Shown: piece after piece, positions 34,154 through 63,720 of the stretch
How the letters are laid out: each line of letters begins with the position of its first letter
Position numbering within the stretch: position 1 is the first letter of the stretch
IMG/VR virus record: IMGVR_UViG_3300032820_000005
Length of the DNA: 64,000 nt
Source of the DNA: an uncultured virus (IMG/VR IMGVR_UViG_3300032820_000005)
Lineage: Duplodnaviria; Heunggongvirae; Uroviricota; Caudoviricetes
Strand: one strand, 5' to 3'
The notes under the pieces: generated by a model
What the model saw: only the letters and a program-made list of their open reading frames with translations
Database searches by the model: none
What the model was told of the DNA's origin: nothing
Translations under genes and position numbers: made by a program

Positions 34154-35017
34154 TTAGTATTCTTCGTTAGCTAACTTCTGAAAATAAGAAAGTGTTTCAG
34201 TAGATTCCCCTGAAGCCTGTGCTGGAATATCAGGTTCATCGCTTTCATCAAATGGTGTAGCTATATCTTCACTATCATCAATACCAATACCCAATACTCG
34301 ATTGAGCTTGGCTTTCAATTCACCATAACTCTTAAACTTATCAGCTGCTAGGAAATCATTCAATAGATATTGCTTTTCCCATACTGATTGAAGTTCTTCA
34401 TCACTCCCGGCTAAAGGTGCAATCGGATCAAATTCAGATTTGTCATAATTGACATATCCTTCAACCATTCTGACTTTAATTTTGAAATTAGCACCTGTCC
34501 AAAAATCAAAAGGATTAACAGGCGATTCATCCTCAAATTCTGGATTCATTACATCATTGATTTTATCAAAGATCTTTTTACCATAACGAAAGATTCTGAC
34601 TTCACCTTCATTTTCAGGATTAGCTGGATCTTTAACTACTAAAATATTACTATAGTAATTCAAGCGACGTTTTTGTTTACGTGCCTGATCTTTCCCAGCC
34701 TGTGTACCATTGTTCCACAATGATGTATTGTATTCTGAAACTGGATCATTTTGTTGTAAAGTTGTCAATGAATTTTCAATGTACCAGCCACCTGGCCCTT
34801 GAAATCCATGATCCCATACTCGTATCCAAGGCAAATCTTCACCTTCACTTGGTGGTAAAAATCGAATAACTGCATACCCATTACCAGATTTATCACGTTC
34901 ACATTTCCAAATGCGATCATCCACGTAACTAGTAACCGTTTGAGTTTTTTCTAATTCAGTTGTTAAATTGGCGAGTTGAGATTGACGATTCTGCTTCATT
35001 TGTGCAAAACTAGACAT
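34154..35017 (-). CDS. gp32: Single-stranded DNA-binding protein gp32
   Basis: DDRIWK...GNGYAVIRFLP, HGFQGPGGWYIENSLTT, NPFDFWTGANFK, NYDKSEF. Confidence 0.96.
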   Translation of the reverse strand: MSSFAQMKQNRQSQLANLTTELEKTQTVTSYVDDRIWKCERDKSGNGYAVIRFLPPSEGEDLPWIRVWDHGFQGPGGWYIENSLTTLQQNDPVSEYNTSLWNNGTQAGKDQARKQKRRLNYYSNILVVKDPANPENEGEVRIFRYGKKIFDKINDVMNPEFEDESPVNPFDFWTGANFKIKVRMVEGYVNYDKSEFDPIAPLAGSDEELQSVWEKQYLLNDFLAADKFKSYGELKAKLNRVLGIGIDDSEDIATPFDESDEPDIPAQASGESTETLSYFQKLANEEY

Positions 35018-35034: not shown

Positions 35035-35646
35035 TTATATTGCTGCGTGTAATTGCTTATTCATTACTACTGTATTGCGTAGTATATTACGATATTTACT
35101 TTCATCAACCTGAAGAAATTTTGAATACTTCTTGCAAGTCAAGCTTGTTTGTGGCCATCGACGTGTTTCTTTTATATCTGTGTCGAATTGCGGAATAAAG
35201 TCTAACAATTTATCCATTATAACAAATGTTTCAATAGATATATCATCAATCCTTTGTAAATCAAACAATACTGGCCATCCAGATCCATTGACAGAAAATA
35301 AACTATTGAAATTGTCAGTTACTTTATTCAATGATTTGATATCATTTTCAAATGTATAGCTCATTCTCTGTATACGTTTTTTCCATTCTTTGTATGTATC
35401 ATCTGCATCATCTCCGTACAATTTATTAAATTGTGATTCGGAAACAAAATGTGAAACAAACAAACCCAACAATTCACTTGAACGATATTTTCTACTTAAT
35501 CGCTCAAAAAAATGACAATCTTGCCTTTTATTAAATGTAGTCTCTTTACATTTAACTCCACCTGTTCCTTTAGTCATATCAAAATGTTCACTAGTAAAAT
35601 GCAACTTCACAGACAAATAAATCTTATAAACTTCAAACGCTGTCAT
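35035..35646 (-). CDS. gp59: Helicase loader gp59
   Basis: FEVYKIYLSVKLHFT, FNKRQD..FFERLSRKY, ISIETFVI; gp33-gp59-gp32 synteny. Confidence 0.9.
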   Translation of the reverse strand: MTAFEVYKIYLSVKLHFTSEHFDMTKGTGGVKCKETTFNKRQDCHFFERLSRKYRSSELLGLFVSHFVSESQFNKLYGDDADDTYKEWKKRIQRMSYTFENDIKSLNKVTDNFNSLFSVNGSGWPVLFDLQRIDDISIETFVIMDKLLDFIPQFDTDIKETRRWPQTSLTCKKYSKFLQVDESKYRNILRNTVVMNKQLHAAI

Positions 35647-35903
35647 ATTGGCAATTCAACTGTATTATCTACAATAAAATTCAATTTCTTAGCTTCAGTT
35701 TCAAGCTTATCCTTTAACTGTCTATTAACCAATTTTGGAATAATTGATGCATCAATATCTTTCTGAATGCAGTATTCCAAAACTGCATCTATATAACTCG
35801 ATTGATTTACTCTAACCATTTTCTCTATTTCAAGTGAAAAGGATTTTGAAGTATGTGAGTTAGTCAACTCCAAAAAATCTTTTTCACTTATTCCATTTTT
35901 CAT
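35643..35903 (-). CDS. gp33: Late-transcription co-activator gp33
   Basis: FSLEIEKMV, SYIDAVLEYC, LKDKLETEAKKLNF. Confidence 0.9.
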   Translation of the reverse strand: MKNGISEKDFLELTNSHTSKSFSLEIEKMVRVNQSSYIDAVLEYCIQKDIDASIIPKLVNRQLKDKLETEAKKLNFIVDNTVELPI

Positions 35904-35911
35904 TATACTAT

Positions 35912-35941
35912 ATTATACCATATCCAGCTAGCGTTTGTCAA
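35912..35941 (-). promoter_or_regulatory. Sigma70-type early promoter (TTGACA-N18-TATAAT, extended TG)
   Basis: Perfect -35 and -10 boxes upstream of gp33; one of eight similar copies in the window. Confidence 0.85.
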
Positions 35942-35950
35942 GGCTATTTT

Positions 35951-36781
35951 TTAGCCTTGTAACAATTGCAATACATTAGCAGACAATTGCTGTGCTTGAG
36001 CCATCAATGCGATAGCTGTTTGCTGTTCAATCCTGTAGCTGGTCAATTTAGCCATTTCTGAAGCTTCATCAAAATCATTGATACTAGCAATAGATTCCTC
36101 ATTAATACTAATCATACGTTCCATATGAGAAATAGTAAAATCGAACCTCTCGATTTTAGCTAACTGATTAGATCGTTCACCCTCTAATGTGGCCAAAGAA
36201 GCTTCCAATCGTGCCACTGCATCCTGAGCATCAGCAACAGTATCCAATTTTGAAGTAACAACTATAACACCCTGATCGTCAGTATAACCACCAAGTTGTA
36301 ATCCACTCCACGTAAGATCACCTAATTCAACACTAACAGATTGATCAACACTAACACCATCAATGATAAAACTCTTAGTTCCAAAAGTACCATCAATCAA
36401 TTCTGTTCCATCATATTCAGTATTTTTAGCAACATAATCAATCTCTTTAGATAGTTCATTGTATTCATCCATCAATGCTTGTCGCTGACTTGAAGTCAAT
36501 TGATCATCTTGAGCTTCAGCTGCAACTTCTTTCATTTTATTAACAACAGCTGTAATCGCATCAGTTCCTGCCAATGCTGACTCTAACAAATCCTGATTCT
36601 GTTTGACCACCTTATGGGCTGCCTGTAGAGTATGAATAGTATTATTGATCCTACCCACTCTAATTTTATCACCCGATCCTAAATCAGCTGTTCCAGATGC
36701 CAACCTAGACATAGTTTCTTCAACCATTCTAGTAGCTTCTTGATATCTACCTAAAGTTTGTGCGGTTATACCACTTAACAT
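35951..36781 (-). CDS. fliC: Flagellin-family protein
   Basis: N-terminal TMSRLASG, NKMKEVAAEA, RQALMDEYNELSKEIDYVAKNTEYDGTELIDG; C-terminal DFDEASEMAKLTSYRIEQQTAIALMAQAQQLSANVLQLL. GAGGT RBS precedes the ATG at 36781. Confidence 0.9.
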   Translation of the reverse strand: MLSGITAQTLGRYQEATRMVEETMSRLASGTADLGSGDKIRVGRINNTIHTLQAAHKVVKQNQDLLESALAGTDAITAVVNKMKEVAAEAQDDQLTSSQRQALMDEYNELSKEIDYVAKNTEYDGTELIDGTFGTKSFIIDGVSVDQSVSVELGDLTWSGLQLGGYTDDQGVIVVTSKLDTVADAQDAVARLEASLATLEGERSNQLAKIERFDFTISHMERMISINEESIASINDFDEASEMAKLTSYRIEQQTAIALMAQAQQLSANVLQLLQG

Positions 36782-36795
36782 ACAACTTACCTCTT

Positions 36796-36939
36796 TCATT
36801 TCCTATACTTACGTTTATTTAAATTATTATCTGACTTAACAGATTTAGAAATACTCTTAACTATCTTTCGATTAGTCTTTTGTCTTTGCTTAATTATTTC
36901 TTGATAATTTACATATATCCTTTCAACTCCAATAAACAT
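36796..36939 (-). CDS. Small basic hypothetical protein (47 aa)
   Basis: Manual translation MFIGVERIYVNYQEIIKQRQK...KYRK fills the gap upstream of the flagellin. Confidence 0.45.
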   Translation of the reverse strand: MFIGVERIYVNYQEIIKQRQKTNRKIVKSISKSVKSDNNLNKRKYRK

Positions 36940-36951
36940 AATCAAATACCC

Positions 36952-37161
36952 TTATGCTTTAACGTCCAAGTTACTGCCCCATTTTCTTGGGGCCATAACG
37001 TTTGAAGTTTCCGATTTAGAAACCTCATGTTTATTCCTTTCATGAGTAGATATTTGAGTTTTCATATGAGTTCTAGCAAGCTGCTTAGCTGACTGAACCT
37101 CTTGGAAAACTCTATAATAATCCATGGCACTCATTTTCTTTACACCATACGTGTCTATCAT
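36952..37161 (-). CDS. Small protein with a YjfB-like C-terminal motif
   Basis: Ends ...KWGSNLDVKA, resembling the GxNxDxxA terminus of YjfB-family putative motility proteins. Confidence 0.5.
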   Translation of the reverse strand: MIDTYGVKKMSAMDYYRVFQEVQSAKQLARTHMKTQISTHERNKHEVSKSETSNVMAPRKWGSNLDVKA

Positions 37162-37358
37162 TGTTCCCCCTCTTTCTCAATATATTCTGTAATTACTATT
37201 TTTATAGCCATAGAAATCCACTGAGAAATGATATTCGGATCATCAGTTTCCAAATGTGCAACAATTTTATTATACAAATCATCATCTAAATCAATATCAA
37301 CCTCTATCATCTTTTTCTGATCTGAATTTTTCACATAATCCTCGAACAGATCAAGCAC
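37158..37358 (-). CDS. Small hypothetical protein
   Basis: ORF overlapping both neighbours in operon fashion. Confidence 0.5.
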   Translation of the reverse strand: MLDLFEDYVKNSDQKKMIEVDIDLDDDLYNKIVAHLETDDPNIISQWISMAIKIVITEYIEKEGEQ

Positions 37359-38040
37359 TAATAATACTTTCCCATGATTTTAAATCATTCCAAGCACCAA
37401 TAGGATAGTTAAAATTATATTTTTCAGCTATTTGCTTGCCCATATTGGTAGCAGGTACTTCAACACCTTCAAAAACAAACGGAGTATTTAATTTTTTGAC
37501 ATGTTGACTATAAGCTTGAGAAATTTTACCCAAAGTTATACCAGAGCCAATACCAAAAGTTTCTCCTGACGTTTCTAAAATTTGAATTTCATCACCAAAT
37601 ATTTCCTGAATGCGAATAACAGCACCATCCTGCTTCCATTTTTTTGTAATAAATTTACATTTATTAAAGAATTCTTTAGCAGCCATAGTATCAGGTCTAA
37701 CAGCCAGATAAGATCGCTCAACTACATCAACCAGCTTATCAGCTGGGCACTGATCATAAGGAGTGTTCTCGATAGAACACTCTCGCCAATGCCCAACCAG
37801 CTGGTAAACACCCATCTTTTGACGATTGAACCAATCTCTTAAATCGCGATTTCTTTTGATATTTTCCTTTTTATCAAATTCACCACGATAAGCAGTGATA
37901 ATAATAAAATCCTCTTGATCTGATTTAACCTTCTGGATAATCCTAGATAAACCAGCTTCAGTGATTGCATTATTATTATCACTATCAGATCCCCAATCAT
38001 CATAAGTTAATGTGTTATGATATTGCTTAAATGTTTTCAT
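37351..38040 (-). CDS. Hypothetical protein, candidate capsid-internal protein
   Basis: Starts MKTFKQY (resembles the T4 capsid-targeting sequence); contains IITAYRG...ENIKRNRDL. Confidence 0.65.
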   Translation of the reverse strand: MKTFKQYHNTLTYDDWGSDSDNNNAITEAGLSRIIQKVKSDQEDFIIITAYRGEFDKKENIKRNRDLRDWFNRQKMGVYQLVGHWRECSIENTPYDQCPADKLVDVVERSYLAVRPDTMAAKEFFNKCKFITKKWKQDGAVIRIQEIFGDEIQILETSGETFGIGSGITLGKISQAYSQHVKKLNTPFVFEGVEVPATNMGKQIAEKYNFNYPIGAWNDLKSWESIISA

Positions 38041-38340: not shown

Positions 38341-39174
38341 TTATGTTTCGAGAACTTCTACTTTATCAGCATCTTTTTCTTCTATGAATAAATGCCGTAA
38401 TGATTTACGTTGACGTTCTTTCCTACGTTCCTGTGCATCATAATAATCCGAACCATCATAAATAAATTGTAATTCATGATGCTCGAAAAACTCATACAAC
38501 CTAGATGGATGCGTACCAAATCCCATCCAAGTCATAACATCTATCCCAAACCCTAATTGGATACTAGTAATACGAGAGCATAAACCTAACAACGTACCAT
38601 TTTCACCATGAAATACACCACCGCCTGAGTTGCCAAAAATGGATGGGGCATTATACATAATATAAGACTTTTGGTCAATCATCTCTCGCAGATATGTCAA
38701 TTCACCTTTACTAGCAAAAGGATCATGTAACAAGCTACATCCACTTGTCCAAACATCATCAAATAATTGCAAATCGTCAATACCGTCTTTTGGATAAATT
38801 GTTGCAACATATTCTTGTGGCCTGCTGTTGCGTAGTTTAATCGCTGCCAAATCGTGCCCTTTATCATAAGCTATAATTTCTGCTTGTGAACTATTAGCTG
38901 AAGATATTTTAGAACCATCATAATCAAAAACTTCATTCGCAACTTCTTCTTTAATATCCTTTTTAATTTCTCTTTTCAATAATGAATCCCATTCATCTTT
39001 AACAGAAATAGCACCATCAATAACATGCTGACATGTCAATATGATATTGATATATTTTCCTTCTTCTTTTGGATCTGGTTCACTATACACTAAAACACCA
39101 GATCCGCCAGCTTTTCCAGCTTTTACTCTGGTAACTGGATACAAAATCTTTTCATGTAAATCTTTTTGATTCAT
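38341..39174 (-). CDS. Trypsin-like (S1) serine protease
   Basis: GSGVLV, ILTCQHV (His), DLAAIKL (Asp), GNSGGGVF (Ser) catalytic triad. Confidence 0.9.
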   Translation of the reverse strand: MNQKDLHEKILYPVTRVKAGKAGGSGVLVYSEPDPKEEGKYINIILTCQHVIDGAISVKDEWDSLLKREIKKDIKEEVANEVFDYDGSKISSANSSQAEIIAYDKGHDLAAIKLRNSRPQEYVATIYPKDGIDDLQLFDDVWTSGCSLLHDPFASKGELTYLREMIDQKSYIMYNAPSIFGNSGGGVFHGENGTLLGLCSRITSIQLGFGIDVMTWMGFGTHPSRLYEFFEHHELQFIYDGSDYYDAQERRKERQRKSLRHLFIEEKDADKVEVLET

Positions 39175-39437
39175 GATTTCTCTCCTTTATAAATCAACCA
39201 CATTACAACACATAAAAAAGTCATTATCAATCCTGATATATAATTGAAAAATAGCCAAAATGCATTCAATTCTTTTGTCAATACATATCCCAAACCACAA
39301 TAATAACCTATCCCATTAATTATCAACATTATCAAACTAACATCTCTTGAACTTTTTCGTCTAACCATCTTTATCATTTGTGGAATATAAGCCACACTAA
39401 ATGATACCGAAAGTACTATTCCTAAAAAATCTTCCAT
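39171..39437 (-). CDS. SemiSWEET / PQ-loop membrane transporter
   Basis: 88 aa, three hydrophobic helices, AYIPQMIKMVRRKSSRDVS PQ-loop motif. Confidence 0.85.
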   Translation of the reverse strand: MEDFLGIVLSVSFSVAYIPQMIKMVRRKSSRDVSLIMLIINGIGYYCGLGYVLTKELNAFWLFFNYISGLIMTFLCVVMWLIYKGEKS

Positions 39438-39530
39438 ATTTAAGTAGCGCCGGCCACTTGTATCTCGTAGGACGGCCGGCTATCCTTCATCACATTCGCT
39501 TGGAGTGTACTTGGGAATGTGATTGAAAAA

Positions 39531-39775
39531 TGGTCAATTTCTGTTGACAGGTATTGACCAAACCCCGGCTTGCTTGTTTCTTTTAAGCAGCCATTGGTAA
39601 TTGGTTATTGCCAATTGTTTGTTTGCAACTTTCTGGCTGTTGCCACCACAGGTAATCTTGCTCTTATCATTGTCATATCCTGTCGAATTCCAATTACAGC
39701 CCCATAATGGTGGAGCTGGCCGGAGTCGAACCGGCGTCCAAAATACCAACAACTCAAACTCAAGCGATTACAAGT
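39531..39775 (-). ncRNA. ssrA: Circularly permuted (two-piece) tmRNA; tag (A)GNNQLPMAA
   Basis: Minus strand reads GGACGCCGGTTCGACTCCGGCCAGCTCCACCA (T-arm, acceptor 3' strand, CCA ending at 39708), then TTAT, then GGGGCTGTAATTGGAATTCGAC (5' end at 39703). Acceptor stem has G3-U70. Tag ORF is 39612..39583. Outer boundaries are approximate. Confidence 0.9.
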
Positions 39776-39780
39776 CATTA

Positions 39781-40026
39781 TTAATTCTGAGGATCATACT
39801 TATTGATTGAAGATATGTAATCACTAGATGTACCATCTGAAGTAGTAATCTTCAATCCACTGCTATCATTTTCTGGTGCATCTAATTTAATATTATATCC
39901 ACTACTCGGTTCTGGCTTCAACTTTTCAATAAGAGCATCCAATAATTTTATTGTTTCATCATAGGTTGGAGTCACGACTTCAAGTTCAAATTTAGGATTC
40001 AACATATCAACTCTTGCTTTAAACAT
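39781..40026 (-). CDS. Hypothetical early protein
   Basis: 81-aa ORF directly downstream of a consensus promoter, with AAGGT RBS. Confidence 0.7.
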   Translation of the reverse strand: MFKARVDMLNPKFELEVVTPTYDETIKLLDALIEKLKPEPSSGYNIKLDAPENDSSGLKITTSDGTSSDYISSINKYDPQN

Positions 40027-40050: not shown

Positions 40051-40080
40051 ATTATACCATATTCAGCTAGCGTTTGTCAA
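40051..40080 (-). promoter_or_regulatory. Sigma70-type early promoter
   Basis: TTGACA-N18-TATAAT, nearly identical to the copies at 35912 and 49599; upstream of the tmRNA/protease/flagellin island. Confidence 0.85.
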
Positions 40081-57542: not shown

Positions 57543-57851
57543 GGTTAATTTCACTTTTTTGACCTATTTTACCAAAAAAAATAAAAAAATATTTTTCTGA
57601 TGGTTTTTTGAAAACTTCTGCAGTCGTTTGGGCGCGTCTAGCCGAACTTGGGGGTCGATTTTTGTGAAGATCTCATATGACTGTCCTTTTGACATATTTG
57701 AGAAATCTCAAAAATCATGTGAAAAGTTAAAAATCGAGCATTTAGCTAAAAATGTGTCAAAAAGCGCTTTTCTGTGAAATTTCAGCTTTTCACCGATTTC
57801 CCAAATATGCCCAAAAAGCGTGCAATTGCTCATTTTTTGTGCATTTCCTCG

Positions 57852-58012
57852 AATCACAAACCATGCCAAGTCGAAAATCCACTTTTTTGAGCTTTTCTGT
57901 AAACATTTTGTAAAATTCTGTGAATCACAATGCGTGCCAAGTTTTTTCAGCTTTTCTGAAAATATTTTCAGCTGCTTTTCAGTCGAAATACCCAAATCAC
58001 AAACTGTGCCAA
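57852..58012. repeat. Three regularly spaced direct repeats AATCACAA-N4-TGCCAA
   Basis: Copies start at 57852, 57923 and 57995 (periods 71 and 72 bp) among A/T tracts. Confidence 0.75.
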
Positions 58013-58164
58013 CTTTTTTGTTGAAATCGAGCTGCTCATGAGCTGAAATTTCATTTTCGACTGAAATACAGCTGTTTTGGTCTGTTTTGAGTATTTTTAT
58101 GTCATTTTTGGTCATAATTGATCGCTTTTGGACTAAATGTCTTTTCTGAATGATGTACAGAGTA

Positions 58165-60242: not shown

Positions 60243-60572
60243 TTATTTTTTAATCAATGGATGCTCTAATCCAATTTCACGATACATCAATGCTCTTAGA
60301 AAATCCACTAGTGCATTGAAATCTTTAACAAATCCATCACTCTCTATATCGAAATTATTTTCTTTAAGTATAACTAAAGTATGCGTACAACATTCAGCTA
60401 AAACCTGCTCGACATATGGTTCTGGCTCATCTGGATATACTAGTGGAATTTCAACTTCCTCATAATTGCAACTTGGATGGATTATAATTTTATCATCATC
60501 CATATAATTCTCCATATACAAATATTTATTCCATTTGATATAAGCTATAGCTGCAAGTAATTTCATGGCCAC
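60243..60572 (-). CDS. Hypothetical protein
   Basis: ORF between the SET gene and rnh; the true start is probably an internal Met. Confidence 0.55.
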   Translation of the reverse strand: MAMKLLAAIAYIKWNKYLYMENYMDDDKIIIHPSCNYEEVEIPLVYPDEPEPYVEQVLAECCTHTLVILKENNFDIESDGFVKDFNALVDFLRALMYREIGLEHPLIKK

Positions 60573-60876
60573 ATTTTATATCTTGGATTGTAAACAATTT
60601 CTTTACTATCAAAAAAATTGTAGAAGATTTGACTACTGGTTCTAACTGATAAAGTTCAGTACCTTCAATCAATGTACAATTTGGTTCATCACTATGATTG
60701 TAAAATCCGCCTAATGGTGTTCTACAATATCCTTGTGGAAATCCAGGCAATTTGACATGGGCAATACCCAAATCACAACCAGAGTATATATTAGATGTAG
60801 CAAATATACCTAAACCATGTATATCAGATTTTTTAATTGTAAGACAGGGTGGTAATGGTGTATACATTTTTGTCAA
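60526..60876 (-). CDS. SET-domain protein (lysine methyltransferase fold)
   Basis: SDIHGLGIFAT, GFYNHSDEPNC, QDIKCGHEITCSY signature motifs. Confidence 0.88.
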   Translation of the reverse strand: MTKMYTPLPPCLTIKKSDIHGLGIFATSNIYSGCDLGIAHVKLPGFPQGYCRTPLGGFYNHSDEPNCTLIEGTELYQLEPVVKSSTIFLIVKKLFTIQDIKCGHEITCSYSLYQME

Positions 60877-61161: not shown

Positions 61162-61509
61162 TTATTTCCTTGCATATAAATCATACTGTTCTGGCCATCC
61201 CGTCTGCATTTTAGCATGTTCTTCTTCTGTGCAACTTCTGTCTAATGGAACATTGCTAGTATCATCTTTATATTCATATCCATTGGCAACCAAATAAGTT
61301 TCTAATTCTTCACCGCTAATATCGGAAAGTATCAGATTGTCATCTAATTGTATACAAGGCTGATTTGTCTGCCCTGTTTTTTCCACCATTTCATGAAAAT
61401 TTACAGGATCGTGTATTTGGCGCTCTTCATATTGTATGCCATACTTTGACAGAACTTCTCTTACTCCGCGACTCCAACCACACTGCTTTTTTAAATATGC
61501 TATTGTCAT
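61162..61509 (-). CDS. Glutaredoxin-like protein (CGWS active site)
   Basis: CGWS, YEER.I, EMVEKTGQ..QP thioredoxin-fold pattern; AGGAG RBS. Confidence 0.8.
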   Translation of the reverse strand: MTIAYLKKQCGWSRGVREVLSKYGIQYEERQIHDPVNFHEMVEKTGQTNQPCIQLDDNLILSDISGEELETYLVANGYEYKDDTSNVPLDRSCTEEEHAKMQTGWPEQYDLYARK

Positions 61510-61524
61510 TGTTGTTCTCCTTAT

Positions 61525-61785
61525 TTAAAACCCCCTAAAATTCACATCTCTAAATGGAATTATAGTATCTACTGGTTTTGCTGATAATTTCTTTCTTAAT
61601 GATTGTATCTCTGAATTCAAAAAATTAATTTTATTTTGGGTATTAGCAACATTTGATAAACGATCATTTTTAATCGTTTCCGCCAGCTTTACTACTTCTT
61701 CTCTTTTACTAATTAACAATTTTCTAATTTCACCTTTATTCATTACAATTCCCTCATGTATAGTATGGATTTTCGCCTTCTTCAT
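61525..61785 (-). CDS. Hypothetical protein
   Basis: ORF between nfuA and the Grx gene; probable start at MNKGE. Confidence 0.5.
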   Translation of the reverse strand: MKKAKIHTIHEGIVMNKGEIRKLLISKREEVVKLAETIKNDRLSNVANTQNKINFLNSEIQSLRKKLSAKPVDTIIPFRDVNFRGF

Positions 61786-62344
61786 GTTCTGTTATATCAT
61801 CAATTCTTGTTATCTCTGGAAATTCTGCTAATATCTGCTGCTCGACTCCATATTGTAAAGTAGTACCAGATGATGAACAACCTTGACATCCACCTTTCAT
61901 TTCTATATACAGTACACTGGCCTCTACTCTAATCACATCAATTTTCCCGCCATGAGAAGCTATCATAGGATTAATAGTAGAATCTAAATGCTTAGTAATT
62001 CTTTGCTCTATTTCACTGATTTCTGGTACATTAGGATTTGTAATTACAAAACCTTCATTATTCAAATCTGTCTTATAATCAATAGTAGCACCATTCACTT
62101 TCTCTAAAGAATTTTCATCAATTACCATATCAAATTTTTCTAAATTGAAAAAATTGTCATACCGATGCTCTATTTCATTTTTTCTAATATCCAACCCCAT
62201 CTGATAATCAAACTCAGTAGAATTTTGACCCGTTACCTTTAATCTGAATAAGGTATCTTTTGGTATCATGTTTTCAGATTCAATTACACTGAAAATTTTT
62301 GCAATTGCTGTTTCAGTTACTTCTAATTCAATATCTGGTATCAT
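61754..62344 (-). CDS. nfuA: Fe-S carrier NfuA (degenerate A-type domain plus Nfu domain)
   Basis: [15 protein letters not shown]...[37 protein letters not shown]. Confidence 0.9.
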
Positions 62345-63720
62345 CCTACACTACCTTCCATTTGTAGTTGAATTAATTTATTAAGTTCCATTGCATATTC
62401 CATTGGCAATTCCTTGACCAACGGTTCTATAAAACCATTAACGATCATAGCTGATGCTTCCATTTCTGAAATACCCCTACTCATAAAATAAAATAATTGT
62501 TCTTCACCTATTTTGCTAACAGTAGCTTCATGCTCTATGTTGACTTGATCATTGTCTATCTCTATATACGGATATGTGTCAGATTGTGATTCTTCGTCTA
62601 ATATCAATGCATCACATACTACGCTAGATTTTGAATTGTCCGCATTTTCACTAACTTTAACCAATCCGCGATAACTAGTTCTACCACCGCTTTTGCTAAG
62701 AGATTTTGATACAATTTTAGATGTAGTATTTGGTGCATTGTGTACAATTTTGCCACCAGCGTCTTGATGCTGATTTTTGCCAGCAAAGGCTATTGACAAA
62801 ACTTCACCGTGTGCGCCTTCTCCATTTAAATATACACTAGGATATTTCATTGTTACCCTACTACCCAAATTACCATCTACCCATTCCATTACTGCACCTT
62901 CTTCGGCGATAGCTCTTTTGGTTACAAGATTGTATACATTATTAGACCAATTTTGTATAGTTGAGTATCGTACTCTTGAATCCTTCATGCAAATAATTTC
63001 GACTACTGCACTATGAAGCGACGCAGCTGAATAAGTTGGAGCCGTGCAGCCTTCCACATAATGTACTTGTGAACCTTCGTCGGCTATAATCAATGTTCTT
63101 TCAAATTGCCCCATATTTTCAGTATTGATGCGAAAGTATGCTTGTAACGGATAATCTATTTTAACTCCTGGCGGTACATAGATGAAACTTCCACCTGACC
63201 AAACTGCAGTATTCAATGCTGCAAATTTGTTGTCTAATGGCGGAATAACAGTACCGAAATATTTTTTAAAAATTTCTGGATGTTCCTTGATGGCTGATTC
63301 TGGATCAGAAAAAATAACGCCCTGCCTGCTCAATTCTTCTTTCATATCATGATAAACAACTTCTGAATCATATTGACCGCCAGCACCAGCTAAGAATTTC
63401 TGTTCTGCTTCTGGAATACCCAACCTATCAAAAGTATTTTTAATGTCATCTGGTACATCATCCCAATCGGTGGCTGATTTTTCAGAGTGCGATACATAAT
63501 ACCTTATTTGATCAAAATTCAATTCTGACAAATCTGCACCCCAATCCAAATCATTTTTCTCTAAAAATATTCTATATGAATTTAAGCGATAATCCAACAT
63601 CCATTGCGGCTCATTTTTCAAATCAGATATTTGCTTAATAGTGGCAGATGTTAAACCTTTATCAAATTGAATTTTTGGCTTGACATCATCTGAAAATCCG
63701 TATTTGTAGTTATCTAACAT
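62341..63720 (-). CDS. sufB: Fe-S cluster assembly scaffold SufB
   Basis: [81 protein letters not shown]. Confidence 0.97.

Follow-up and report, generated by a model that had tools for sequence, protein, structure and literature searches.

A phage-only short flagellin under strong purifying selection in uncultured marine T4-like phages, and its possible interference with the host flagellum

What does a flagellin gene do in the genome of a T4-like phage? The question is raised by a single gene, here called FLA, in a 64,000-nucleotide stretch of DNA from an uncultured virus (IMG/VR record IMGVR_UViG_3300032820_000005), the whole of which was analyzed and is referred to as the window. An initial annotation, made from the letters of the sequence, had described a phage-encoded flagellin with an intact C-terminus and an altered N-terminal region, and had proposed a decoy or dominant-negative role. 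Our analysis establishes FLA as a true flagellin homologue of the short type that consists of domains D0 and D1 only, encoded by an intact gene. Strong purifying selection maintains it, and its place upstream of gp33 is fixed across a large group of marine T4-like myophages, all of them uncultured. The phage probably tampers with the swimming apparatus of its host, and the two leading ways in which it may do so are close in likelihood. The gene and its start are defined by the following features.

35951..36781, minus strand: FLA, phage flagellin of the D0/D1-only type, 276 amino acids (open reading frame, Pfam, AlphaFold2/Foldseek and the ratio of nonsynonymous to synonymous substitution rates, dN/dS)
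36790..36795, minus strand: ribosome-binding site AAGAGG, 7 nucleotides before the ATG at 36781, read from the sequence

The 276-residue open reading frame (ORF) is confirmed at these coordinates, with its strand corrected to minus. Read in the sense in which it is transcribed, the gene does lie upstream of gp33, with a gap of 47 nucleotides between the two genes. The product begins MLSGITAQ. A longer frame of 282 residues is also open from 36799. The 276-residue start is preferred because AAGAGG lies 7 nucleotides upstream of it and because in alignment A1 six of the eight clade members begin there, with MLSG/MLNS, the exceptions being the phage subtypes P0121, which as called has a six-residue extension, and P0124, which starts MIQG.

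Both helical domains ascribed to the protein passed their Pfam models, with Flagellin_N (PF00669) scoring 45.6 bits against a cut-off of 26.6 over residues 9-132 and Flagellin_C (PF00700) scoring 45.7 bits against a cut-off of 23 over residues 196-274. A phmmer search of PDB sequences matched 69 distinct flagellin sequences, the top one at 3.4e-20. None of the NCBIfam flagellin equivalogs (FliC, FlaA, LafA, Hag and others) was reached; the top family, NF009444, gave 93.8 bits against a cut-off of 332, and all 22 NCBIfam flagellin families listed score far under their cut-offs. The AlphaFold2 model (predicted local distance difference test, pLDDT, 74.8; predicted template modeling score, pTM, 0.55) divides the protein into these parts, given in residues of FLA.

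2-29: predicted N-terminal D0 (ND0) helix
30-35: predicted short linker
36-90 and 97-120: predicted N-terminal D1 (ND1) helices
121-180: predicted small beta region
182-275: predicted helix of C-terminal D1 and D0 (CD1 and CD0)

The short variable middle that had been read from the sequence thus amounts to about 60 residues between the D1 helices. Foldseek returned 90 PDB matches to the model at E ≤ 1e-3, of which the top, with a query-based template modeling score (TMq) of 0.80, were filament flagellins; on filament flagellins of the D0/D1-only type the model gave template modeling (TM) scores of 0.74-0.80. Among predicted viral structures the search yielded one match at E ≤ 1e-3, at a TM score of only 0.44, and no fusion of FLA to a phage structural domain was found.

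Is the gene genuinely part of a phage genome? That it could be an artefact or dead cargo, whether an assembly chimera, host contamination or a decaying passenger, is suggested by a single point, namely that an uncultured assembly is the source of the window. The DNA belongs to a T4-like myophage with a Straboviridae/Kyanoviridae-type core, supported by PHROG matches from 1e-18 to 1e-110. Its virion module spans 1-34 kb, with genes for the baseplate (hub and wedge), tail tube, tape measure, head closure and DNA end protector at 21-34 kb, and further along lie ThyX, DNA ligase, RNase H and a CobS-like ATPase. T4-like core genes stand on both sides of FLA, and the phage gene context noted at first reading extends to three genes that follow it directly.

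35643..35903, minus strand: gp33, late-transcription co-activator and conserved downstream neighbor (phrog_254, 3.9e-18; PF16805, 66.6 bits)
35035-35646, minus strand: gp59, helicase loader (phrog_269, 6.8e-56)
34154-35017, minus strand: gp32, single-strand DNA-binding protein (phrog_224, 8.6e-110)

FLA-type flagellins were found on 28 viral loci, comprising 16 of the window type (IMG/VR) and 12 of two deeper subtypes. Dozens of marine assemblies made independently have the gene in this slot. The gene order is shared by the 16 window-type loci, where gp33 comes directly after FLA in 13 and after a 3.6-kb insert (endolysin, peptidase, exonuclease) in three. For the P0124 subtype, gp33-gp59-gp32 come next downstream in all eight loci examined (L070, L071 and L076 lie outside these eight), directly in seven and after an 820-nucleotide gap in L066. 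The guanine-plus-cytosine (GC) content across the window is even, at 28-37%. RNA-library contigs from two studies, at 98-99% identity, bridge both junctions of the gene, one between FLA and gp33 (35551-36277) and the other across orf69, orf49 and FLA, the two small ORFs being its upstream neighbors. These contigs derive from four runs, carry neither strand nor timing and may include DNA carry-over, and uncovered stretches in them (for example 37.7-38.3 kb in X1) are uninformative; they are good evidence against a chimera and weak evidence of expression. Across 36 pairs of nine FLA copies, dN/dS is 0.06-0.20 at dS values from 0.09 to about 3.1, with no stops. Neither chimerism nor pseudogene-like evolution, both of which had been named as possible grounds for dismissal, finds support here. 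The artefact explanation is already refuted, and we give it virtually no weight.

Where does this flagellin come from? When FLA was scored against 1.84 billion representative proteins, 9096 hits were obtained, only six of them below E 1e-30. Identity to FLA is 71% for phage subtype P0121, 43% for P0123 and 39% for P0124, and then drops to 30-35%; to no cellular flagellin does its identity exceed about 35%. In a maximum-likelihood tree with 66 rows, the 14 phage rows all fall into one clade, with a Shimodaira-Hasegawa-like approximate likelihood ratio test (SH-aLRT) support of 99, and the phage-specific clade that the initial annotation had suggested looking for does exist. The nearest cellular rows are the marine metagenome flagellins P0132, P0134 and P0137 (314-381 amino acids, supports 93-96); the rows were picked from best hits, and the sister position of these three is thus only a lead. 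Members of the P0132 family carry metagenome-assembled genome (MAG) labels of Poribacteria and Gammaproteobacteria, on contigs with 40% GC as against 33% for the phage, and as a pointer to donor or host this family is likewise no more than a lead.

The distribution of the gene is in keeping with a phage-borne family. A word-indexed search found 284 relatives, of which the 120 listed are 70-99% identical, have 253-291 amino acids and stem from many marine assemblies. The genomes of 185,579 species, one each, contained only two close copies of FLA, both on small phage-like contigs in MAG bins. A tblastn search of 50,697 phage records gave one weak match, to a Bacillus record at 25.8% identity, and none in a cultured T4-like phage, which agrees with the earlier remark that flagellin is not a standard T4-like gene. 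Genes of the P0124 type occur on 11 viral loci, and the P0123 type on a 104.8-kb contig, G407. The latter is not T4-like and encodes an HK97-type capsid, a portal of the Phage_portal family, DnaB and a primase.

How FLA departs from cellular flagellins was assessed in a 55-sequence alignment, in which 36 cellular flagellins and four phage subtypes were compared region by region by mean pairwise identity. The customary INTN start is missing as had been reported, the window protein beginning 4-10 columns after the cellular flagellins. The conserved segment RLSSGxRINSAxDDAAG, which corresponds to the flg22 region and the D0-D1 linker, is absent as well; FLA has RLASGTADLGSGDKIR instead, with a four-column gap, and the replacement string quoted in the initial annotation, RLASGTADLGSGDKIRVG, is present in its translation. 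This linker is the region of highest identity among the 36 cellular flagellins (0.69) and of lowest identity among the four phage subtypes (0.35). CD0, on the other hand, is the best-kept region in the phage clade (0.59), and it is also closest to cellular flagellins, with a mean identity of 0.38 as against 0.19-0.33 in other regions, which bears out the reported closeness of the C-terminal end to consensus. The motif is lost and shortened in two of the three subtypes examined, namely window/P0121 and P0123. P0124 has a linker of canonical length (RLASGSRIPKFSDDSVASASVV) and a Flagellin_N score of 84.8 bits, and the remodeling therefore arose within the phage clade. In the whole alignment, 24 positions show no variation or a conservation of 90% or more, and window FLA has kept them, R100 and E106 of ND1 among them.

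When in infection might the gene be read? Exact TTGACA-N18-TATAAT sites number eight, where 0.30 would be expected in the window; every one is on the minus strand and falls at 35.9-58.2 kb (35912-58194). Most of them share ATGGTATAAT, three share a near-identical 30-mer (TTGACAAACGCTAGCTG..), and four cluster at 56.8-57.5 kb. Two of the eight flank the gene string that ends in FLA.

40051..40080, minus strand: exact match to the sigma-70 promoter consensus (TTGACA-N18-TATAAT with TG), the closest such site upstream of the FLA gene string
35912..35941, minus strand: exact sigma-70 consensus promoter in the 47-nucleotide gap between the FLA stop and gp33, at the end of the FLA transcription unit

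After the promoter ending at 40080 come orf81, a transfer-messenger RNA (tmRNA), a PQ-loop protein, a peptidase, several small ORFs, orf69, orf49 and FLA. From there to 35941 the genes are tightly packed or overlapping and co-directional, and a search for terminator-like sites gave none on this strand in the interval. The 30-mer at 35912..35941 is also found downstream of FLA in L001, L002, L005, L006 and L007, and similar promoters lie 580-930 nucleotides upstream of FLA in L008, L014, L015 and L019. The motif TATAAATA is not enriched in the window (11 observed, where 14 would be expected); its coding-strand occurrences are confined to the virion-gene half and are absent from 29.2-64 kb and from the 6 kb upstream of FLA. 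Because this packed, co-directional string lies between two exact sigma-70 promoters, in the half that lacks coding-strand TATAAATA, we infer that FLA is an early gene transcribed by the host RNA polymerase. Such a context makes a role in the virion less likely.

The type of flagellin carried does not follow the core genes. In loci L004 and L008-L013, FLA is 84-89% identical to that of the window, though gp32 is only 54-57%, gp59 35-39% and gp33 40-46% identical. Loci L066-L075 show the reverse, with gp32 at 64-69% identity and yet a P0124-type flagellin at only 35-38%. Between the similar FLA copies on diverged backbones dS is 0.7-1.2, which argues against very recent transfer. The peptidase (90% identical) and a GH108 endolysin (81-85%) behave like FLA in L004 and L011-L013, the peptidase reaching its 90% in L004 and L011, where gp32 is at 54-57%. 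This decoupling is what a host-matched module would show. It suggests that FLA, peptidase and endolysin form a host-matched gene set that moves between different phage backbones or is co-selected in them.

Which host this might be is indicated only indirectly. The gp32 of the window is 60-64% identical to those of cyanomyoviruses and of Pelagibacter phage HTVC008M (SAR11) alike, and no cultured phage is close. The two MAG bins that hold close copies of FLA, on contigs of 8.5 and 6.7 kb, are assigned to Chromatiales and Pacearchaeota; they were considered as hosts and rejected, the SufB protein of the window being only 43% and 52% identical to theirs, and the phage contigs in these bins are probably misbinned. 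The same gene string as FLA contains a permuted, two-piece tmRNA at 39583-39772 on the minus strand (ARAGORN 39492-39800; Rfam RF04321, 83.8 bits against a gathering score of 47), with the tag peptide GNNQLPMAA according to ARAGORN. This tmRNA type is found in Alphaproteobacteria, some Betaproteobacteria and some cyanobacteria. A BLAST search with it against 401 genomes of one phylum and phage records returned only the universal tRNA-like arm of 30-45 nucleotides.

Does FLA act alone? Two small ORFs precede it, and a further gene of note, outside the window, lies on G407.

36952..37161, minus strand: orf69, 69-residue orphan companion with the motifs THEREKH and C-terminal G-x-x-L-D-V-K-A
36796..36945, minus strand: orf49, small basic ORF between orf69 and FLA, no Pfam family
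L086:18363-18719 = G407:C1:98363-98719, minus strand: FlgM-domain gene of G407, adjoining the portal gene

Of these, orf69 stands directly upstream of FLA in each of the 15 viral loci whose sequence extends far enough in that direction, even the rearranged L008-L010, and it is present in L019 as well. It has no Pfam family at E ≤ 1, the Atlas gave unnamed viral clusters only, and a profile search returned 93 unnamed metagenomic proteins. Its C-terminal motif may resemble the end of FlaG proteins, a likeness that is unsupported by any search. With a hidden Markov model (HMM) of the orf69 family, a single copy was detected in G407, at a distance of 14 kb from FLA, and the P0124-type loci, the complete 69.7 kb of G406 among them, gave no match; it is thus the short-linker subtypes that the family accompanies. 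A 102-residue ORF just upstream of FLA in L077 had been taken for orf69 by eye and was rejected by the family HMM (E>10), and the adjacency in G407 was dropped. Co-folding of FLA with orf69 scored 0.00 against a mark of 0.32, the fold of orf69 itself being uncertain. It is probable that orf69 is a partner of FLA. For orf49, tblastn matches were confined to the closest relatives (L001, L002, L005, L006, L007 and L017). In two P0124-type loci a cysteine-rich ORF of 62-65 residues (CxxC ... C ... C) lies directly upstream of the flagellin (L073:6756-6944 and L074:6775-6972, both plus strand); it is not an orf69 homologue and has no PHROG family.

The G407 gene encodes a 119-residue protein with an IF2_N domain and a domain of FlgM, the anti-sigma-28 factor, the latter at 30.9-31.7 bits against a cut-off of 25. 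A candidate FlgM homologue in the window was discarded, the tblastn match of P0333 to the ORF at 57708-58115 being weak and of low complexity (E 0.42), with no Pfam match. The phage sequences that were scanned yielded no gene for FliS, FliW or CsrA. Neither a Maf-type flagellin glycosyltransferase (PF01973) nor psbA (PF00124) occurred in any of the five FLA-bearing viral records, which are fragments and 23-73% complete.

What, then, may FLA do? Our tentative preference, held with well under even confidence, is that it is an interfering flagellin mimic. FLA would be made early by the host RNA polymerase, and its conserved C-terminal D0 and D1 surfaces would let it enter the flagellin-handling pathway of the host, at a FliS-type chaperone, at FliW/FlaF-type regulators, at the export gate or possibly at the filament tip. 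With its shortened N-terminus and its remodeled D0-D1 linker, four residues shorter, it would not be a normal subunit. It may block or cap the export or assembly of flagellin, or it may imitate a surplus of unexported flagellin, and either way the costly production of host flagellin would be shut down during infection. The linker region presumably overlaps the export signal mapped in Salmonella flagellin. The loss of the most conserved flagellin motif, together with the great distance from cellular flagellins, favors such a mimic. Selection over the whole D0/D1 fold favors instead a working replacement subunit, which is possible and nearly as likely. FLA would then be exported by the host flagellar type III system and would polymerize into the filament, either keeping the flagellum growing after host shut-off, as cyanophage psbA does for its own process, or altering the filament, as the prophage flagellin FliCP does. 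Its D0/D1 architecture is complete, it has kept the positions conserved at 90% or more across flagellins, and selection runs along its entire length. Flagellins of 270-285 residues are ordinary filament formers, and the fold search placed those of Caulobacter, Shewanella, Leptospira and Roseburia at the top. There is also a precedent, since FliCP assembles into filaments and replaces the host flagellin while TldR represses the host gene (PMC13418256). The FlgM-domain protein of G407 could act as TldR does, by switching off sigma-28-dependent host flagellin. Yet auxiliary stand-ins are usually close to the host copy, whereas FLA is so far from every non-phage protein, at no more than about 35% identity, and the motif most conserved in flagellins is lost and shortened in two of the three subtypes examined. 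A lytic infection gives little time for rebuilding a filament, and no TldR/TnpB-like domain was found among the ORFs scanned at 34-64 kb.

Several observations weigh against the interfering mimic. The canonical linker of P0124 means that the remodeling is not common to the whole clade, and selection on the entire D0/D1 fold, with its 24 conserved positions, fits a polymerizing subunit no less well than it fits a pure decoy. FlgM was found in only one of the five FLA-bearing records, the other four being 23-34% complete. The equal distance of gp32 to cyanomyoviruses and to the SAR11 phage is a further difficulty, for cyanobacteria and SAR11 are not known to have flagella, and neither FlhA nor a flagellin of its own was seen in the one bacterial MAG into which a copy of the phage contig was binned, probably by mistake. 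The latter considerations lead to explanations in which host flagella play no part. FLA could be a structure of the phage itself, a fiber or decoration that assembles itself on the virion, or a polymer formed within the infected cell, and the flagellin fold is indeed a self-assembling coiled-coil, while the nearest cultured relatives by gp32 infect the hosts just mentioned. We regard this as unlikely, as FLA sits among early-type promoters and outside the virion module at 1-34 kb, with no coding-strand TATAAATA in the 6 kb upstream, is not fused to a phage structural domain, and met its only viral structural match at the low TM score given above. Rather improbable, too, is a host without a flagellum in which the flagellin fold has been taken out of its flagellar setting, with FLA, perhaps together with orf69, self-assembling within the cell or on the phage particle as a polymer peculiar to the phage; its shorter N-terminus and linker would then adapt FLA to assembly without a type III export channel. 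Some other role keeps a modest share of the probability, above that of either of these two structural explanations and below that of the replacement subunit.

The surroundings of FLA hold further genes of note, the first of which shares its unusual conservation between diverged backbones.

38341..39174, minus strand: trypsin-like peptidase, 277 amino acids, a cytoplasmic-looking serine peptidase (PF13365, 48.8 bits)

This peptidase is contiguous with FLA in L008-L010, which is an association only, and its relatives in cultured phages amount to one weak match among the 50,697 records. A PQ-loop protein of 88 residues (39171-39437, minus strand; PF04193, 41 bits) has the size of a SemiSWEET-type transporter half and is kept in related loci and in G407. 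A 229-residue protein (37351-38040, minus strand) gave a sub-threshold match to S-adenosylmethionine lyase, at 25.3 bits against a cut-off of 28, and is 86-100% identical in close relatives and 67% in L068. Genes for iron-sulfur (Fe-S) cluster assembly lie at 61162-63720 on the minus strand, coding for SufB (459 amino acids; PF01458, 298.6 bits), a glutaredoxin and an NfuA-like protein of 196 residues that fuses Fe-S_biosyn and NifU domains; G407 has an NfuA-like gene too. A small SET-domain protein (PF00856, 29-33 bits), encoded in the window at 60526-60876 on the minus strand, is conserved in the P0124-type phage G406 (L081:6547-6840, minus strand).

Flagella are among the costliest bacterial structures, and they matter for marine bacteria in reaching nutrient patches. 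FLA is fixed in the early region of an abundant and diverse group of ocean T4-like phages, which keep it more constant than their own replication proteins. If FLA does block or rebuild the flagellum in lytic infection, infection would directly alter the motility of marine bacteria, and FLA would represent a new class of host-takeover genes. It is, besides, a natural and strongly selected variant of the flagellin linker (flg22) that lends itself to the study of export and polymerization.

How does FLA compare with known systems? In the literature covered, a phage-encoded flagellin appears only in the work on TldR and FliCP and none for lytic or marine phages, and a survey of pelagimyophages (PMC7029224) does not contain the string 'flagell' in its main text. 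Until now, descriptions of phage flagellin have come from prophages of gut Enterobacteriaceae alone, and there it alters the filament of the lysogen. Within this coverage, no short flagellin with a remodeled linker was met among the early genes of lytic-type T4-like phages from the sea, and FliCP is the nearest precedent. FliCP-TldR is a prophage-encoded flagellin with an RNA-guided repressor in FR-phi, a temperate lambda-like phage of Enterobacter, and FliCP is described as the first known prophage-encoded flagellin (PMC13418256). FliCP resembles FLA in being a phage-borne flagellin that is highly divergent from host flagellins and has a D0/D1 core, and its phage also interferes with host flagellin expression (PMC13418256). 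A possible counterpart to this interference is the FlgM-domain gene of G407. There are differences, too. FliCP is long, with large outer domains D2-D4 and a D0/D1 core described as conserved and highly similar to that of the host, whereas FLA has 276 residues, D0 and D1 only, and a remodeled linker. FliCP belongs to a temperate siphovirus, lies beside tldR and benefits the lysogen, whereas FLA is found in the early region of marine phages that are T4-like and presumably lytic. No TnpB/OrfB-type domain such as that of TldR was found among the ORFs scanned at 34-64 kb, where a guide RNA was not searched for, and no integrase family appeared in the scans of the T4-like gene set of the window.

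Closer in size are the short filament flagellins of Caulobacter (FljK/L/M/N), Shewanella (FlaA/B), Leptospira (FlaB), Roseburia and Kurthia, with TMq values of 0.71-0.80 on targets of 270-282 residues. They share both Pfam domains with FLA, though identity in the structural alignments is only 19-24%, and FLA differs from them in lacking the GxRINSAxDDAAG linker motif and INTN and in being phage-encoded. Flagellin paralogues outside the filament show that the fold can be reused for regulation, surface binding and secretion, all of them being cellular genes. Campylobacter FlaC is one flagellin homologue that is no ordinary filament subunit. Cell-surface flagellin homologues are represented by 3k8v and 3k8w, of which 3k8v matches FLA at E 1.4e-7, more weakly than filament flagellins do. 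A regulatory flagellin paralogue is described in Caulobacter (PMC7591256). To none of these paralogues is FLA specifically related in sequence. FLA also matched PDB entries 6gow and 5maw, both from the FliS/flagellin/FliW module. FliS binds the C-terminal D0 region of flagellin, and it is because this region is the best kept in FLA that we draw a likeness to that pathway. The homeostasis module formed by FliS, flagellin and FliW (PMC6070490) is the pathway that a mimic such as FLA would enter.

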